The notes under the pieces: generated by a model
The model's database searches: none
What the model was told of the DNA's origin: nothing
Seen by the model: only the letters and a program-made list of their open reading frames with translations
Program-made: the position numbers and the translations under genes
Shown: in pieces, positions 6,039 to 42,521 of the stretch
How positions within the stretch are numbered: position 1 is the stretch's first letter
How the letters are laid out: the number at the start of each line of letters is the position of its first letter
IMG/VR virus record: IMGVR_UViG_2706794696_000015
Length of the DNA stretch: 42,521 nucleotides
Origin: a virus
Lineage: Duplodnaviria; Heunggongvirae; Uroviricota; Caudoviricetes
Reading direction: 5' to 3' (one strand)

Positions 6039-6871
6039 ACAGTTTAACGGCAAATAACCGTTTGTCGCAACAGCTGGTGGTCAGCGTCGCTGAACACCTG
6101 TTGTTACGGCATGAATGCAGATTACCAAATCACCTGGCTGTAAGTAACCACAGAGAACTTTACCTGACTGTGGGGGGCGAGTTGTGCAGGAACTTAACCG
6201 CTGGTTTCGTGACGGAAGAGGACTTTATGTTCATGTTATTCGTTGGGAGCCAGAAACACAGCGCGTTATCTATCTTCGCAAAGACTACCCGCATGAGTGC
6301 TTTAGTCCTTTGTGGAAATTCAGGCGTGATTTTGTTGAGTGTGAAGGACCACCAGCACATTGATTCTGCCATTCCGGGACGTTACACTGTTCAGGCACCT
6401 TATAAAGCGGGTGCCGGGATTGGCGTCCTGGAATTGATCAAGGCGATATATGACGCGCCAGCGTCTTTTTTATCGTCCGCATTTGCTCACATCAAAGTTA
6501 TGGTGGGCTGGGCGGGGGCATCGAAAGATGCGCCGGTTTCCTTGATCACCGGTTACGCCAACCCCGTTCAGTTCACCACCAGCGAAATTGGCGTTTCCGG
6601 TGGTGGAAGTATTTCACCGATCAAGGAGGCTGCCATCATGGCTACTGTCCCAGCCCTCACTCGTCTGAATGATGAAGACTTACATAAACTCAGTTATGTA
6701 ACAACTGCACTACGTGCTCTGCGCAAGGTAACTCTTTCGGATCCGCAGGCACATCAGGTTCTGGTAGAAACCCTTCTTAACTTGCAAGCTGAACGTATTC
6801 GTCTGGCGGATAAGGCTAATTTTCATATTCACCGTCTCCTGAATATCAGCGGAGGGCATCGTCATGCTTAA
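6035..6871 (+). CDS. Hypothetical protein; possibly a composite of smaller genes
   Basis: 278 aa ORF; contains an internal ATG at 6638 with a strong AAGGAGG RBS (77 aa product) and a protein-like 59 aa alternative-frame ORF at 6184..6363. Confidence 0.35.
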   Translation: MNSLTANNRLSQQLVVSVAEHLLLRHECRLPNHLAVSNHRELYLTVGGELCRNLTAGFVTEEDFMFMLFVGSQKHSALSIFAKTTRMSALVLCGNSGVILLSVKDHQHIDSAIPGRYTVQAPYKAGAGIGVLELIKAIYDAPASFLSSAFAHIKVMVGWAGASKDAPVSLITGYANPVQFTTSEIGVSGGGSISPIKEAAIMATVPALTRLNDEDLHKLSYVTTALRALRKVTLSDPQAHQVLVETLLNLQAERIRLADKANFHIHRLLNISGGHRHA

Positions 6872-14912: not shown

Positions 14913-15162
14913 NNNNNNNNNNNNNNNNNNNNNNNNNNNNNNNNNNNNNNNNNNNNNNNNNNNNNNNNNNNNNNNNNNNNNNNNNNNNNNNNNNNNNNNN
15001 NNNNNNNNNNNNNNNNNNNNNNNNNNNNNNNNNNNNNNNNNNNNNNNNNNNNNNNNNNNNNNNNNNNNNNNNNNNNNNNNNNNNNNNNNNNNNNNNNNNN
15101 NNNNNNNNNNNNNNNNNNNNNNNNNNNNNNNNNNNNNNNNNNNNNNNNNNNNNNNNNNNNNN
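14913..15162. other. Assembly gap (250 N)
   Basis: Run of N. Confidence 1.
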
Positions 15163-31961: not shown

Positions 31962-35054
<3,093 letters not shown>

Positions 35055-35353
35055 NNNNNNNNNNNNNNNNNNNNNNNNNNNNNNNNNNNNNNNNNNNNNN
35101 NNNNNNNNNNNNNNNNNNNNNNNNNNNNNNNNNNNNNNNNNNNNNNNNNNNNNNNNNNNNNNNNNNNNNNNNNNNNNNNNNNNNNNNNNNNNNNNNNNNN
35201 NNNNNNNNNNNNNNNNNNNNNNNNNNNNNNNNNNNNNNNNNNNNNNNNNNNNNNNNNNNNNNNNNNNNNNNNNNNNNNNNNNNNNNNNNNNNNNNNNNNN
35301 NNNNNNNNNNNNNNNNNNNNNNNNNNNNNNNNNNNNNNNNNNNNNNNNNNNNN
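35055..35353. other. Assembly gap (299 N) covering the J 3' end
   Basis: Run of N. Confidence 1.
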
Positions 35354-35382
35354 TCGTTGAAATATTTATAACCCCAATAAAG

Positions 35383-35406
35383 GGCGTCAGGAATGACGCC
35401 TTTTTT
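35383..35406 (+). terminator. Rho-independent terminator after J
   Basis: GGCGTCA-GGAA-TGACGCC plus TTTTTT. Confidence 0.65.
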
Positions 35407-36083: not shown

Positions 36084-36094
36084 GTGGGGTGAAT

Positions 36095-39000
36095 ATGGCA
36101 GTAAAGATTTCAGGTGTACTGAAAGACGGCACAGGAAAACCGGTACAGAACTGCACAATCCAGCTGAAAGCAAAACGTAACAGCACCACGGTGGTGGTGA
36201 ACACGCTGGCCTCAGAAAATCCGGATGAAGCCGGGCGTTACAGCATGGACGTTGAGTACGGTCAGTACAGCGTTATTCTGTTGGTGGAAGGATTCCCGCC
36301 GTCACATGCCGGGACCATCACCGTGTATGAAGATTCCCGACCCGGTACGCTGAATGATTTTCTCGGTGCCATGACGGAGGATGATGCCCGTCCTGAGGCA
36401 CTGCGCCGCTTTGAACTGATGGTGGAAGAGGTGGCGCGTAACGCGTCCGCGGTGGCACAGAACACGGCAGCCGCGAAGAAATCAGCCAGCGATGCCAGCA
36501 CATCAGCCCGTGAGGCGGCAACCCGTGCGACTGATGCTGCAGGCTCAGCACGAGCAGCCAGCACGTCAGCCGGACAGGCCGCTTCGTCGGCTCAGTCTGC
36601 GTCTTCCAGCGCAGGAACGGCATCAGCAAAGGCCACTGAAGCATCAAAAAGTGCTGCCGCTGCAGAGTCCTCAAAAAGCGCGGCGGCCACCAGTGCCGGT
36701 GCGGCGAAAACGTCAGAAACGAATGCGGCAGCGTCACAACAATCAGCTGCCACTTCTGCATCCACCGCGACCACGAAAGCGTCAGAAGCAGCCACCTCAG
36801 CCAGAGATGCGTCGGCTTCAAAAGAGGCGGCAAAATTATCAGAAACGAGCGCAGCTTCGAGCGCCAGTAATGCCGCTTCCTCGGCAACGGCGGCAGGAAA
36901 TTCCGCGAAGGCGGCAAAGACGTCTGAGACAAACGCTAAGTCCTCTGAAACGGCAGCAGCACAGAGTGCCTCCGCAGCAGCAGGCTCAAAAACAGCGGCT
37001 GCGTCGTCTGCCAGTGCAGCGTCAACAAGTGCCGGGCAGGCCTCAGCCAGTGCTAGCGCCGCCGGAAAATCGGCAGAAAGCGCCGCATCGTCCGCTTCAA
37101 CAGCCACAACGAAGGCTGGCGAAGCCACTGAACAGGCCAGTGCAGCAGCGAGGTCTGCTTCCGCAGCGAAGACATCGGAGACGAACGCGAAAGCGTCGGA
37201 GACCAGCGCAGAATCCTCAAAAACGGCTGCCGCATCGTCCGCCAGTTCGGCGGCGTCATCGGCATCATCGGCGTCTGCTTCAAAAGATGAGGCGACCAGA
37301 CAAGCGTCCGCAGCGAAGGGCAGCGCCACGACAGCATCCACGAAGGCGACAGAGGCTGCTGGCAGTGCGACGGCGGCAGCACAGAGCAAAAGTACGGCGG
37401 AATCCGCGGCAACGCGCGCCGAGACAGCGGCAAAACGTGCAGAGGATATTGCATCCGCCGTGGCGCTTGAGGATGCGAGCACGACGAAAAAGGGGATAGT
37501 ACAGCTCAGTAGTGCGACTAATAGCACGTCTGAAACGCTGGCGGCAACGCCAAAGGCAGTAAAAGCAGCCAATGACAATGCTGAGAAACGTCTGCAGAAA
37601 GACCAGAACGGCGCTGATATACCCGATAAGGGACGCTTCCTGAACAACATTAACGCGGTCAGTAAAACAGACTTTGCTGATAAGCGTGGTATGCGTTATG
37701 TGCGGGTTAACGCTCCTGCAGGTGCAACATCTGGAAAATATTACCCTGTTGTTGTTATGCGTTCTGCTGGCTCAGTAAGCGAACTGGCATCAAGGGTCAT
37801 TATCACCACGGCAACGCGAATCGCAGGCGATCCGATGAATAACTGCGAGTTTAACGGATTTGTTATGCCTGGTGGCTGGACTGACAGGGGGCGTTATGCT
37901 TATGGAATGTTCTGGCAATATCAAAACAATGAACGAGCCATCCACTCAATAATGATGAGTAATAAGGGCGATGATTTGCGCTCTGTGTTCTATGTTGATG
38001 GCGCTGCTTTCCCTGTTTTTGCGTTTCTCGAAGATGGCCTGTCAATATCCGCACCTGGTGCTGATCTCGTTGTTAATGATACGACCTATAAGTTTGGGGC
38101 AACAAATCCGGCGACTGAATGTATCGCGGCGGACGTTATCCTTGATTTTAAGAGTGGGCGTGGTTTTTATGAGTCTCATTCGTTAATCGTTAACGATAAC
38201 TTGTCGTGCAAAAAACTTTTTGCCACAGACGAAATTGTAGCGCGTGGTGGTAATCAGATTCGAATGATAGGTGGGGAGTATGGTGCATTATGGCGTAATG
38301 ATGGCGCTAAAACTTACCTGCTGCTTACCAATCAAGGTGATGTTTATGGTGGCTGGAATACATTAAGACCGTTTGTTATTGATAACGCAACCGGCGAACT
38401 GGTTATTGGAACCAAACTGTCTGCAAGTCTGAACGGTAACGCATTGACAGCAACAAAGCTGCAAACGCCAAGACTGGTTTCTGGTGTTGAGTTTGATGGT
38501 TCCAAAGATATTACTTTAACCGCCGCGCATGTGGCTGCTTTTGCCAGAAGGGCAACGGATACATATGCCGATGCGGATGGTGGCGTTCCATGGAATGCCG
38601 AATCAGGCGCTTACAATGTCACCCGCTCTGGCAACAGCTATATTCTGGTTAACTTCTATACCGGAGTCGGAAGTTGCCGGACCTTGCAGATGAAGGCGCA
38701 TTACAGAAATGGTGGTCTGTTCTACCGTTCTTCAAGAGACGGTTATGGTTTTGAGGAAGACTGGGCAGAAGTTTATACCTCGAAAAATCTTCCACCAGAA
38801 AGCTACCCAGTCGGTGCACCAATCCCGTGGCCATCAGATACCGTTCCGTCTGGTTATGCCCTGATGCAGGGACAGACTTTTGACAAATCTGCTTACCCGA
38901 AACTTGCAGCCGTTTATCCGTCAGGTGTGATCCCTGATATGCGTGGCTGGACGATTAAGGGCAAACCTGCCAGTGGTCGGGCCGTATTGTCTCAGGAACA

Positions 39001-39493
39001 GGACGGCATTAAATCGCATACCCACAGCGCCAGCGCATCCAGTACGGATTTGGGGACGAAAACCACATCGTCGTTTGATTACGGCACTAAATCCACGAAT
39101 AACACTGGTGCGCATACCCATAGTTTAAGTGGCAGCACGAATGCAGCTGGTAATCACAGCCATAGAGATGGCCGTCGATTTAACCCCAGTGTTTTTAAAG
39201 ATACTTATCAATATGGTTATACAAGCTCAGGTCAAAATACCTGGGGTGTACAAGGCTCAGTAGGTATGTCTACGGGGTGGTTAGCGAATACCAGTATAGA
39301 TGGTAATCATAGCCATTCACTGTCCGGCACAGCAGCATCTGCAGGTGCACACGCGCATACTGTCGGTATTGGTGCTCATACGCACTCCGTTGCGATTGGT
39401 TCACATGGACATACCATCACCGTTAACGCTGCGGGTAACGCGGAAAACACCGTCAAAAACATCGCATTTAACTATATTGTGAGGCTTGCATAA
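36095..39493 (+). CDS. stf: Side tail fibre protein Stf, mosaic with an extra internal domain
   Basis: Lambda Stf-like N-terminus ([26 protein letters not shown]), Ala/Ser-rich repeats, AT-richer inserted domain, lambda-type His-rich C-terminus. Confidence 0.9.
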
Positions 39494-40077
39494 TGGCATT
39501 CAGAATGAGTGAACAACCACGGACCATAAAAATTTATAATCTGCTGACCGGAACTAATGAATTTATTGGTGAAGGTGACGCATATATTCCGCCTCATACA
39601 GGTCTGCCAGCAAACAGTACCTATATTGCACCGCCAGATATTCCGGCTGGCTTTGTGGCTGTTTTCAACAGTGATGAGGCATCGTGGCATCTCGTTGAAG
39701 ACCATCGGGGTAAAACGGTTTATGACGTAGCGTCAGGGGACGCGTTATTTATTTCTGAACTCGGTCCGTTACCGGAAAATGTTACCTGGTTATCCCCGGA
39801 AGGGGAGTTTCAGAAGTGGAACGGCACAGCCTGGGTGAAGGATACGGAAGCAGAAAAACTGTTCCGGATCCGGGAGGCGGAAGAAACAAAAAACAGCCTG
39901 ATGCAGGTAGCCAGTGAGCATATAGCGCCACTTCAGGATGCTGTAGATCTGGAGATCGCAACGGAGGAAGAAAACTCGTTGCTGGAAGCCTGGAAGAAGT
40001 ATCGGGTGTTGCTGAACCGTGTTGATACATCAACTGCACCTGATATTGAGTGGCCTGCGGTCCCTGTTATGGAGTAA
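39493..40077 (+). CDS. tfa: Tail fibre assembly protein Tfa
   Basis: 194 aa, lambda Tfa-like; TAATG overlap with stf. Confidence 0.9.
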
Positions 40078-40091
40078 TCGTTTTGTGATAT

Positions 40092-40125
40092 GCCGCAGCA
40101 ACTTGTCATGGCAGGATACTGCGGC
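40092..40125. terminator. Hairpin between convergent tfa and RT genes
   Basis: GCCGCAG - 20 nt loop - CTGCGGC followed by TGATTTGTGAATTT; the loop contains GGCAGGAT. Confidence 0.35.
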
Positions 40126-40189
40126 TGATTTGTGAATTTAAATAGTGTGTTTATTGCTTTATATATAAAGGATTTAATGGATTACATAT

Positions 40190-41560
40190 CTATGATATCC
40201 CTGAAATGTCCTCTTCAAGCTCTTTTACTGATTTCGCAATTTTAAATTTAAATTTTCTCTCTATTTCACTATTGCTAAGTTTTTTTTCATTCTCTTTCCC
40301 TATCCACATAGAAACAATTTCTCGTTTCTGAGATATATGTAGATTGTCAAAGTTAGGTATGTATTTAAAAGTCTCCGCTCTACCCCTGCGGAGTTCATAG
40401 AAAGTTTTAATCAAAGACTTTGGTTTTATTTCTGATGAAAGGCCGAATCGGCGGATAAGATTATTGATCGTATGATTAACAGCTCGAAGTTGAGCTGTTG
40501 ACGTTATTTGTGAGAAGTACGATACCCATCCCAATCGTTTACCTTCAAACACACATCCCGTAATTCTAAGATTTAGTTTCCACTGACAATATGCAACAGC
40601 TCGTTCTTTATCGCGCTTATTTTTAGCTTGTAGTAGAGCGTGTCTATATGCAGTAAAAATTTTTGCTAAGGATGACTCAAATCTAAGAATGCTCTCATGT
40701 TTTATCAATAATTCTCGATTTTTTATGTGGTAGCCCAAAAAGTTGAAACTTTCATCCAAGCTGCCTACTTTGGATTTTGAGTTCTCTTCATTTAATGGAT
40801 GTGGGTTTAAATTTAATGATTGAAGCTTATCAATGATATGAGAAGCTATTTTTGTTGCTTGATATTTTGGTGTTAAAATAAGAATGTCATCAACGTATCG
40901 CATGTACCATATGTCATGCATTTTATTGATTTCATCATCGAAATTAGATAGTGATATTTCAGCTAAAATGTTTGATATCGCTAATCCCTGAGGTACTCCT
41001 CTGGTATTATTAGGGATACCTTTGCTTCCTGTGGTTCCACTTACAGTAGGCACGATTAATGATGATGTTATTAACTGTCTAATTTCTTTTTTTCTAATTT
41101 TATTTTTTATTGCATTAATTATCAATTTATGTTCAATTGAAGGATAGAAACTTTTAAGATCTATTTTTGCATATTCAGCATATAGACTGTTGTTTAATGC
41201 TTCTTTCAATGAGTCAATTACTGTATGTGGTAGTTTTAATCTGGACTTAGGATATATTTCCGTAAGGCATTCACAGAGAGCTCTAAGAGTAATTCTGTCC
41301 CTAGCAGTTGGTATGGAAATCTGTCTGGGTGTAGAGTTAGCGCCTTTAGATATTAATTTTTCTTTATATGCTGTAAATTTGTAATTGCCAGAATTAACCT
41401 TTTCAAAAATGAAAGTGATCTCATTTTTTATTGTCAAATCAAGTTTTGATGGGCGAATCCGATCTATGCCAATCGCTCCTGATTCTTTGATTTTTTCAGA
41501 GTATACTTTTAGAAGATTTTTTTTCGAGAATGACTTTTTAAAAATTCTGCTTGCAGTCAT
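40190..41560 (-). CDS. Reverse transcriptase (retron / UG-Abi / DRT-like), with ~200 aa C-terminal extension
   Basis: RT motifs: catalytic Asp in KIDLKSFYPSI, RGVPQGLAISNILAEISL, YVDDILIL, FLGY; AT-rich gene; ATG 41560 (TTG 41566 alternative) overlaps upstream gene. Confidence 0.8.
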   Translation of the reverse strand: MTASRIFKKSFSKKNLLKVYSEKIKESGAIGIDRIRPSKLDLTIKNEITFIFEKVNSGNYKFTAYKEKLISKGANSTPRQISIPTARDRITLRALCECLTEIYPKSRLKLPHTVIDSLKEALNNSLYAEYAKIDLKSFYPSIEHKLIINAIKNKIRKKEIRQLITSSLIVPTVSGTTGSKGIPNNTRGVPQGLAISNILAEISLSNFDDEINKMHDIWYMRYVDDILILTPKYQATKIASHIIDKLQSLNLNPHPLNEENSKSKVGSLDESFNFLGYHIKNRELLIKHESILRFESSLAKIFTAYRHALLQAKNKRDKERAVAYCQWKLNLRITGCVFEGKRLGWVSYFSQITSTAQLRAVNHTINNLIRRFGLSSEIKPKSLIKTFYELRRGRAETFKYIPNFDNLHISQKREIVSMWIGKENEKKLSNSEIERKFKFKIAKSVKELEEDISGIS

Positions 41561-42089
41561 AGTCAATCCAAAGATATATTAATGGGAGTATATAAAGTGC
41601 GGCAGTAATAAATATTCGAAGTAATATCCATAAAATAACAATTATTTTTTCTTTTTGTGTGGGGATCCTCGTCTTAAGTCCAACTTGAGTTACCCTTGAA
41701 ATTTTATCATCTATGTCACGGTGATTCTCAACCTCATTGAGCAAATTAAAATATTTTTCTTTCTGTTCAAGAGATAACTGTTGACTGGTGGTAATGTCAA
41801 AATAGAGTCGCTGTAGTGCAATATAATTCCTTCTCATGGCTATTGCTCGACCACGAAAATCTAGGTTAGATACGATCAGAGAAATACCCAGTAGAGCCAC
41901 TGAAAGTATCGCCGCAACGACATCTGTATTATCTCCTAGAACCTTTGGAAATCGCAACGTTACAATTGAAAGTACCGCACTCAATATAGCATACCAAACG
42001 AGGATAAATTGAGAGTGTTTTTCAAGCCATTCTAGTCGATGGTGCGCTTGGATACGTGCTTTATATGTAAACCAAATATTGTCATGCAT
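41538..42089 (-). CDS. Small multi-pass membrane protein coupled to the RT (candidate effector)
   Basis: 183 aa; hydrophobic segments FILVWYAILSAVLSIVTL, VVAAILSVALLGISLIVSNL and IIVILWILLRIFITAALYILPLIYLWI; AAGGA RBS; 3' end overlaps the RT start by 23 nt. Confidence 0.6.
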   Translation of the reverse strand: MHDNIWFTYKARIQAHHRLEWLEKHSQFILVWYAILSAVLSIVTLRFPKVLGDNTDVVAAILSVALLGISLIVSNLDFRGRAIAMRRNYIALQRLYFDITTSQQLSLEQKEKYFNLLNEVENHRDIDDKISRVTQVGLKTRIPTQKEKIIVILWILLRIFITAALYILPLIYLWIDYDCKQNF

Positions 42090-42099
42090 AAAAGATCCT

Positions 42100-42245
42100 T
42101 TTTAAAAGCGGAAGGGGCAGGATATATTGGAACCGTTGAACATCCTGCCCGGCAGGATCAGTGAGCATAAGCTCAACAGTAAAATATTACTGTTCATTAT
42201 CAGAGCCGCCCTTGCATGCGCAAGAGGAAAAACCTGCCCCATCCC
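42100..42245 (-). ncRNA. Structured 5' leader or candidate ncRNA of the membrane-protein/RT operon
   Basis: ~145 nt between predicted start site and RBS, bracketed by GGGGCAGG / CCTGCCCC inverted repeats, with several internal hairpins and a 17 bp palindrome. Confidence 0.3.
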
Positions 42246-42250
42246 TTTGA

Positions 42251-42280
42251 ATTATTACAATTTAATGATCTTAAAGTCAA
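42251..42280 (-). promoter_or_regulatory. Sigma70-like promoter for the membrane-protein/RT operon
   Basis: Minus strand reads TTGACT - 17 nt - TAATAAT. Confidence 0.45.
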
Positions 42281-42311
42281 TACAAGTGAATGGTGTCCAG
42301 AGATGATGAAC

Positions 42312-42521
42312 TTAATGAACAAACCACTCGTCAGCAGACTCCCAGGTATCTTTCAGAGTCTCCTGAACAAAAGTTTTAGCTGAATCTTTATCAGCGGTGC
42401 GCGTAACAGAAAGGCCATCGTTGCTGGTGGCTTTTACGATCACTTCTACATCGTCATAACGTTTACTGATGCGTCGGGTTAATTCTTCCTTTAACGCATC
42501 CACAGCACCGGTTGGCATTTT
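42312..42521 (-). CDS. DinI-like protein, N-terminus beyond the window
   Basis: C-terminal ...[14 protein letters not shown]...[16 protein letters not shown] resembles DinI (…ETWESADDWF…). Confidence 0.7.

Follow-up and report, generated by a model that had tools for sequence, protein, structure and literature searches.

A prophage-borne cassette identified as a probable DRT10 (UG17) system of the Eco3DRT10 type carries a natural two-base variant of the non-coding RNA template

Reverse transcriptases (RTs) of the UG17 family correspond to DRT10, a defense system that has been studied in three recent works (Tang 2025, PMC12632851; Sanchez-Nieto 2026, bioRxiv 10.64898/2026.04.29.721553; Ramirez 2026, bioRxiv 10.64898/2026.06.29.735271) and that had earlier been tied to SLATT proteins, defense islands and essentiality of sbcB (Mestre et al. 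2022). DRT10 is tripartite: next to the RT and SLATT genes it comprises a template-bearing non-coding RNA (ncRNA) of 137–143 nt that lies upstream of SLATT and is needed for defense. In the predominant UG17 arrangement, the SLATT gene comes first and the two reading frames overlap (Sanchez-Nieto 2026). Eco3DRT10 from Escherichia coli 703491 has been dissected by genetics, biochemistry and cryogenic electron microscopy (cryo-EM). For this system, it was shown that two RT monomers associate with one ncRNA and that kilobase-long, single-stranded tandem repeats are synthesized from Ser456 as the primer (Tang 2025; Ramirez 2026), that homology between the template element A and the realignment element A' as well as the ncRNA stem SL5 are required, and that defense depends on the RT active site, the ncRNA and SLATT. 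In a homologous system, deletion of sbcB, the gene for ExoI, is lethal, and activation requires an SSB-like protein of the phage (Sanchez-Nieto 2026). Here, we compare these systems with a cassette residing in a 42,521-nt stretch of DNA from a member of the Caudoviricetes (IMG/VR record IMGVR_UViG_2706794696_000015), the whole of which is referred to as the window. Judged by its sequence, the cassette is with a probability of about 93% an intact, prophage-borne DRT10 system (UG17, class 2 UG/Abi) of the Eco3DRT10 type, consisting of ncRNA, SLATT and RT. It is therefore an already known rather than a novel system, and its sole distinctive point is a natural two-base variant of the template.

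The assignment is carried in the first place by the RT. Against the PADLOC family RT_UG17, residues 3–458 of the protein aligned with positions 1–429 of the 429-position profile (E = 1.1e-158, 526.6 bits), while the runner-up family, Drt3a, reached 130 bits and the families for DRT9 (UG28) and DRT2 (UG2) scored 69–85 bits. An initial annotation, made from the letters of the sequence without database searches, had found no named subtype for the RT and had proposed a comparison with retron, UG/Abi/DRT and group II families; this comparison places the protein in UG17 over its full length, and in NCBIfam it stays below all curated cut-offs. The catalytic set described at that stage was located residue by residue (KIDLKSFYPSI at 132, PQG at 190, YVDD at 222 and FLGY at 274). 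The C-terminal extension is real as well, although its length had been overestimated, with about 180 rather than about 200 amino acids following FLGY. Beyond the catalytic motifs, R371, K385, Y388 and the C-terminal S456 are all present in the window RT and, just like YVDD, are invariant in 17 homologues of 59–83% identity, which share the tail ELExDIxxxS. In Eco3DRT10, R371, K385 and Y388 anchor the RNA and S456 is the priming residue (Tang 2025; Ramirez 2026). Over the 399 residues that were compared, the window RT and that of Eco3DRT10 (OKX54664.1) are identical at 391 positions (98%), leaving eight substitutions. The OKX54664 record contains two spurious N-terminal residues, which is why S458 is numbered S456 (Tang 2025). 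This start misannotation matches the window exactly, because here, too, the last residue is serine and the open reading frame (ORF) offers two extra codons: the TTG at 41566 would lengthen the RT by two residues, whereas RefSeq chose the ATG at 41560 in an identical genome region.

The 183-residue partner protein matches the PADLOC profile RTasSLATT (1.5e-56) and, in the SLATT-profile check that had been suggested for it, passes the cut-offs of both Pfam SLATT_5 (100 bits, cut-off 29.5) and NCBIfam SLATT_5 (136 bits, cut-off 60). In a Kyte–Doolittle scan, hydrophobic stretches appeared at approximately residues 25–52, 54–79 and 146–177, and the segment in between (79–148) is charged (14 K+R, 9 D+E), in agreement with the two N-terminal hydrophobic helices, charged middle and long C-terminal hydrophobic segment originally described. 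The proposal of an anti-phage RT with a transmembrane effector thus holds at the level of the profiles, which point to a SLATT-family protein. It is identical to the Eco3DRT10 SLATT protein at 178 of 183 positions (97%, five substitutions). The SLATT stop codon (TAA, 41538–41540) lies within the RT frame, which begins with the ATG at 41558–41560, such that the two minus-strand frames share 23 nt as first reported; the translational coupling originally implied was accepted, and overlaps of 1–23 nt occur in homologous loci. That the membrane gene precedes the RT gene had been seen as an obstacle to placement, but SLATT-first is the order that predominates among UG17 systems. The initial annotation had ranked the locus as a candidate for an undescribed system and had itself stated that an exact match to a characterized subtype would make it a known one; with 98% and 97% identity to the Eco3DRT10 proteins, the latter is the case. 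As to the UG17 subtype, the SLATT–RT order and the host phylum (Pseudomonadota) fit A, whereas a prophage-borne E. coli locus, H120, has been reported as B.

A structured ncRNA of 137 nt and a promoter-like site, both of which were overlooked in the initial annotation, occupy the 222-nt gap between the dinI-like gene and SLATT (Table 1). RefSeq annotates nothing across the ncRNA. The RNA folds with a minimum free energy (MFE) of -57.1 kcal/mol (z -3.63), and its GC-rich basal stem encloses four hairpins. When numbered from its 5' end as in Table 1, it has the right bases at all of the published positions, namely G44, G86, G104, U105–U106, C107, G111, C116, A117, U119 and A120–U123. One protein search and one genome scan yielded 44 related loci. 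As calling ORFs from ATG only had mis-set many SLATT starts in these loci, the ncRNA was located with a covariance model (R1), which was built from four E. coli alleles and contains the five helices. Full-length matches were obtained in 27 of 27 loci with an RT at least 50% identical (53–139 bits), in every case on the RT strand and just upstream of SLATT, the hosts being Xenorhabdus, Photorhabdus, Buttiauxella, Pseudomonas, Stutzerimonas, Stenotrophomonas and Bordetella as well as metagenome-assembled genomes (two Pseudomonadaceae and one unclassified proteobacterium). The model found no match in loci whose RTs are 31–37% identical, which agrees with the report that covariance models for DRT10 ncRNAs work only within subtypes (Sanchez-Nieto 2026). 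In the resulting alignment, 96.5% of the cells form standard pairs compared to 85.1% in shuffled alignments and 49–56% when the partners are slid, 24 of the 37 base pairs have changed on both sides, all five helices carry compensatory changes, and the observed values were reached by none of 500 shuffles. The alignment was fitted to the covariance model and therefore favors the structure; despite this, the matter is decided by the pairs changed on both sides and by the controls with slid partners. The MFE fold contains an extra helix (38–39 and 42–44 with 110–116) that would sequester the template. It needs C110 and G112, which Eco3DRT10 lacks, and was dropped from the model. Rfam 15 holds no family for the DRT10 ncRNA, and its sole match in the cassette (40078..42311) is a chance hit to bantam (E 0.26).

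The promoter-like site obtained the top score in a promoter consensus scan (10 of 12 matches) and is invariant in the four E. coli alleles. Overall, the scan found no excess of sites over shuffled sequence, and we therefore only infer a promoter function. For a homologue, it was demonstrated that the ncRNA is transcribed independently (Sanchez-Nieto 2026). Only 18 nt separate the 3' end of the ncRNA from the SLATT start codon and no separate promoter is present there; the SLATT–RT mRNA probably arises via read-through past the basal stem and the U tract.

Taken together with the order ncRNA–SLATT–RT, the overlapping frames, the 456-residue RT ending in Ser456, and the 137-nt ncRNA with its five helices and the landmarks of loops A and B, the window shares all of these traits with Eco3DRT10. 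The difference lies in the template. The window loop reads CAAC-GGUUC-CAAU at ncRNA positions 107–119, starts three nt past SL5 and is in the same register as in Eco3DRT10, where A-B is CAAU-GAUUC (107–115), A' is CAAU (116–119) and the product is (GAATCATTG)n (Tang 2025). Position for position, CAACGGUUC followed by CAAU in the window is homologous to CAAUGAUUC followed by CAAU in Eco3DRT10, the changes being U110C and A112G. The predicted product of the window system would accordingly be a protein-primed (GAACCGTTG)n instead of (GAATCATTG)n. A change of the repeat is supported by the behavior of Eco3DRT10, in which the exchange U110A was tolerated and merely altered the repeat sequence (Tang 2025). 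The A-B-A' pattern is present in 25 of 26 distinct homologous RNAs, and in 23 of the 26 element A comprises at least 4 nt, as opposed to about 25% of shuffled loops. Neither the template strings nor the WP_ accessions had a match in the supplements of Tang et al. among the rows listed.

Identities of 97–98% for the proteins and of the ncRNA at the published landmarks outside the template allow the mechanism of Eco3DRT10 to be carried over to the window. According to this scheme, the 137-nt ncRNA would be transcribed from its own promoter and, being pseudo-symmetric, would be bound by two RT monomers. The monomer at loop B would prime DNA synthesis from the hydroxyl group of its own C-terminal Ser456 and copy the ncRNA from position 115 to 107, and the SL5 anchor (G104, R371) would halt it at C107. 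Next, the 3' end of the growing strand would re-pair with A' (116–119) and the cycle would be repeated in a telomerase-like manner, giving rise to kilobase-long, single-stranded tandem-repeat DNA covalently joined to the RT. Specific to the window would be the repeat GAACCGTTG in place of GAATCATTG, brought about by U110C and A112G. Membrane damage and abortive infection would be the expected outcome. Two models have been put forward for the interplay of complementary DNA (cDNA) and the SLATT pore: either the cDNA neutralizes SLATT until infection lowers cDNA levels (Tang 2025), or cDNA accumulates once ExoI/SbcB has been perturbed by an SSB-like phage protein, and SLATT is thereby activated (Sanchez-Nieto 2026).

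More distant relatives share parts of this scheme. Eco1DRT10 and the UG17-A system of Escherichia sp. E3659 belong to the same family and exhibit the same tripartite logic with a tandem-repeat cDNA; they differ from the window system in an RT of about 445 residues, priming by Tyr444 in Eco1DRT10, a 7-nt repeat, A elements of 2–3 nt and another ncRNA sequence. For the E3659 system, studied in the Toro laboratory, tolerance depends on SbcB and a phage SSB-like protein is the trigger. DRT9 (UG28) and DRT2 (UG2) resemble DRT10 in that the template is embedded in an ncRNA and a repetitive cDNA serves as immune intermediate. In DRT9, a protein again acts as the primer and the fold of the ncRNA has been described as similar, but priming is by tyrosine and the product is poly(dA) copied from a U-tract; DRT2, in turn, synthesizes a 120-nt unit in rolling-circle fashion and thereby assembles a gene. 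Telomerase (TERT with telomerase RNA) likewise achieves repeat-addition processivity on a short internal RNA template, possesses an element for realignment and relies on structure to delimit the template on its 5' side. In contrast to telomerase, DRT10 is primed by protein instead of by chromosome ends, has a compact RT of 456 residues, assembles with a 2:1 ratio of RT to RNA, acts in immunity and works with a membrane effector. Retron Ec48 couples RT-made DNA to a transmembrane toxin with two transmembrane (2TM) segments and leads to abortive infection, but its RT is from another clade, and its msr-msd RNA and 2'-5' branched msDNA are absent from the window system.

The cassette is widespread. 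Seventeen complete E. coli genomes carry all of its 2234 nt at 100% identity, and with a coverage of at least 80% the cassette occurs in 188 of 5426, in each case on the chromosome. The exact 456-residue RT is recorded on 732 contigs, and the 458-residue form corresponds to ANK04665.1 from E. coli O25b:H4. Close variants of both proteins occur several times as UG17 loci in Table S1 of Tang 2025. A collection of 50,697 phage records contained no match to the cassette at megablast sensitivity, so that it has been seen only as chromosomal prophage cargo. Concerning the template, CAACGGUUC is found in the window and in the alleles of 96.8% and 98.7% identity, and CAAUGAUUC in Eco3DRT10 and in strain 510016, whose ncRNA equals that of the window over all 137 positions apart from the Eco3-type template. 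Going by a single sequenced member of each identity class, which permits no more than a rough extrapolation, the window-type template probably outnumbers the other among complete E. coli genomes. In E. coli 510016 (NZ_CP025851.1, 3223–4551; template CAATGATTC, Eco3-type), an IS1A element sits inside SLATT while ncRNA and RT are intact; this insertion amounts to a natural effector knock-out and fits the idea that carriage of the system is costly.

Several points weigh against the assignment in its full form. For the last 57 residues of the Eco3DRT10 RT, identity to the window would have to be taken from conservation within the family. The window template departs at two bases from the allele that was tested experimentally, and 76% of shuffled loops also give an A-B-A' pattern when A needs to comprise only at least 3 nt. 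The pattern alone is thus weak evidence, and the argument rests on positional homology with Eco3DRT10. Moreover, position 110 (C) no longer matches position 119 in A' (U), and the 3' end GTTG of the cDNA would pair with CAAU through three Watson–Crick pairs and one G-U pair. Finally, A112G creates an exact 4-nt repeat, GUUC, at 104–107 and 112–115. The loop (42126–42141, ncRNA 104–119) consequently contains two overlapping direct-repeat registers, GUUC..GUUC with a period of 8 and CAA(C)..CAA(U) with a period of 9, and in principle the former could blur the latter, as does a cryptic site in Eco1DRT10. A DRT10 system working in this other or an imprecise register would read through to G104, realign on GUUC 112–115 and produce the 8-nt repeat CGTTGAAC or a mixture rather than a clean 9-nt GAACCGTTG. 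We consider this unlikely. GUUC/AACG/GUUC is indeed the longest exact A-B-A' in the window loop, in the 9-nt register no more than three bases (CAA) match exactly, and a cryptic re-annealing site degrades periodicity in Eco1DRT10 (Tang 2025). Yet the boundary at C107 is geometric, being set by the SL5 anchor, the Hoogsteen pair G86–G104 and the linker U105–U106 (Ramirez 2026), all of which are present in the window together with R371; the exchange U110A did no more in Eco3DRT10 than change the repeat, and most homologous RNAs repeat (U)CAA from positions 106–107. A DRT10 system that is intact in sequence may also be silent or decaying cargo that no longer defends its host. The IS1 insertion in the SLATT gene of strain 510016 illustrates that loss of the system, or selection against it, does happen, but in the window the ORFs, the promoter-like site, helices, template and key residues are all intact and the cassette is perfectly conserved in 17 genomes; decay of this copy is very improbable.

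The remaining explanations would place the RT outside DRT10 altogether. A retron-like or other Abi/DRT system, such as an Ec48-type retron with its 2TM effector, DRT3 or DRT9, shares with the window the superficial combination of RT and transmembrane partner, and this analogy had originally been drawn. The corresponding matches are weak (130 bits for Drt3a, 58 bits for the retron St85 family and about 20 bits for the 2TM effector); they lie far under the 526.6 bits of RT_UG17 and, in NCBIfam, under the cut-offs (112.6 against 200 for Drt3a, 58.4 against 235 for retron_St85_RT). In addition, the RNA has the five-helix fold and the telomerase-like template loop of DRT10, and no flanking inverted repeats in the style of msr/msd were found, so we regard a system of this kind as highly improbable. 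Even more remote is a mobile retroelement, i.e., a group II intron maturase or a diversity-generating retroelement. It can invoke a match to the group II RT/maturase family TIGR04416 and a marginal one to GIIM, but the former scores 144.4 bits against a cut-off of 300 and the latter 14.8 against 23, and Rfam scans revealed no group II intron RNA. Nor is there a template/variable repeat pair within the 3.5 kb from 39000 to 42521, where no direct repeat is longer than 34 nt and none exceeds 71–89% identity.

What the identification as DRT10 yields is modest with regard to discovery: the system is named, is covered by PADLOC, belongs to a UG17 locus family in Table S1 of Tang 2025 and has been analyzed in detail with respect to mechanism and structure, a cryo-EM structure existing for the 98%-identical complex. 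The gain is in the annotation of a locus for which RefSeq states only "reverse transcriptase domain-containing protein" and "SLATT domain-containing protein", in exact coordinates for ncRNA, template and promoter-like site (Table 1), and in the realization that what is probably the commonest allele in complete E. coli genomes has a template unlike that of the laboratory model. E. coli DRT10 alleles of this type have at least two natural templates (CAACGGUUC and CAAUGAUUC), which should give rise to different repeat DNAs. It is doubtful that the two-base difference is a functional polymorphism and not neutral drift. If the repeat sequence did matter, specificity or threshold would vary between the alleles; the repeat could affect binding to or gating of SLATT, sensitivity to ExoI, or recognition by phage SSB-like triggers or anti-defense proteins. 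The window allele would also be a natural test of realignment via a G-U pair beside a competing 4-nt register.

Table 1. Positions, in window numbering, of the cassette features and of the genes flanking the cassette
Feature	Position	Strand	Details
tfa	39493..40077	+	Flank of the cassette
RT gene	40190..41560	-	456 aa from ATG; ORF extends to 41566 with TTG start (458 aa)
SLATT ORF	41538..42089	-	183 aa; AAGGA ribosome-binding site 8 nt 5' of ATG
DRT10 ncRNA (predicted)	42108..42244	-	137 nt; upstream of SLATT; from fold and covariance model
ncRNA helices			Basal SL1 1-12/124-135; SL2 19-36; SL3 51-70; SL4 71-82; SL5 87-103 (ncRNA numbering)
ncRNA loop B			104-123 (ncRNA numbering), 20-nt loop; bears the template
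Template A-B (putative)	42130..42138	-	ncRNA 107-115, CAACGGUUC; predicted cDNA unit 5'-GAACCGTTG-3'
Realignment element A' (putative)	42126..42129	-	ncRNA 116-119, CAAU; identical to A' of Eco3DRT10
Promoter-like site	42251..42280	-	TTGACT, 18 nt, AATAAT, TG just upstream; -10 ends 7 nt before ncRNA position 1
DinI-like gene	begins 42312	-	Other flank of the cassette

The cassette had been described as AT-rich and as inserted between tfa and a dinI-like gene, and both statements are borne out, with a GC content of 0.345 (34.5%) for 40078..42311 compared to 0.514 (51.4%) in the remainder of the window. The low GC content is confined to the coding part (36% in SLATT and 33% in the RT gene compared to 50% in the ncRNA). 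Similarity to sequenced lambdoid phages ends at about 40100–40110, just past tfa, and related lambdoid phages carry other minus-strand cargo at this place (a YbcY-like protein, a hypothetical protein or an omptin). The earlier designation as a moron slot, i.e., a variable lambdoid cargo site, is therefore fair. Between the convergent tfa and RT genes, where the homology to lambdoid phages stops, an inverted repeat (GCCGCAG..CTGCGGC, 20-nt loop, 40092–40125) is located; a terminator common to both genes or the junction of the cassette are possible roles, and a terminator scan did not call it. At the end of the prophage in an identical genome, the dinI-like gene is followed by an integrase gene adjoining dusA, and other alleles are carried by prophages adjoining prfC. 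The unit of dinI-like gene, ncRNA, SLATT and RT thus recurs in prophages at differing chromosomal sites. Neighboring cargo is bracketed by a second dinI-like gene in two genomes (an ImmA/IrrE protein with a helix-turn-helix protein in one genome and a DUF4760 protein in the other), and dinI-like genes seem to punctuate the cargo array.

Some further observations concern the rest of the window. Runs of N at 14913–15162, 33506–33834 and 35055–35353 are masked sequence; an apparent second AT-rich island at 35000–35400 (GC 0.115) was rejected as an artefact of the last of these runs, which also cuts the end of the gpJ-like ORF. Rfam family RF02111 (IS009) has a full-length match inside tfa (39836–40034, plus strand; 224.6 bits, gathering score 117), which may reflect a family defined on this very prophage sequence. 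The Hfq-binding RNA isrK (64 bits) and C4 antisense RNA (82 bits) are matched next to each other at 6395–6471 and 6496–6583 on the plus strand. Such a pair is a typical trait of the region that controls the anti-repressor in lambdoid and P1-like prophages. The ORF for the side tail fibre (36089–39493, plus strand, 1134 residues) has an N-terminal half of low complexity that is rich in Ala, Ser and Thr (approximately residues 110–470) and gives rise to a strong AT skew and to a spurious antisense ORF of 352 residues.

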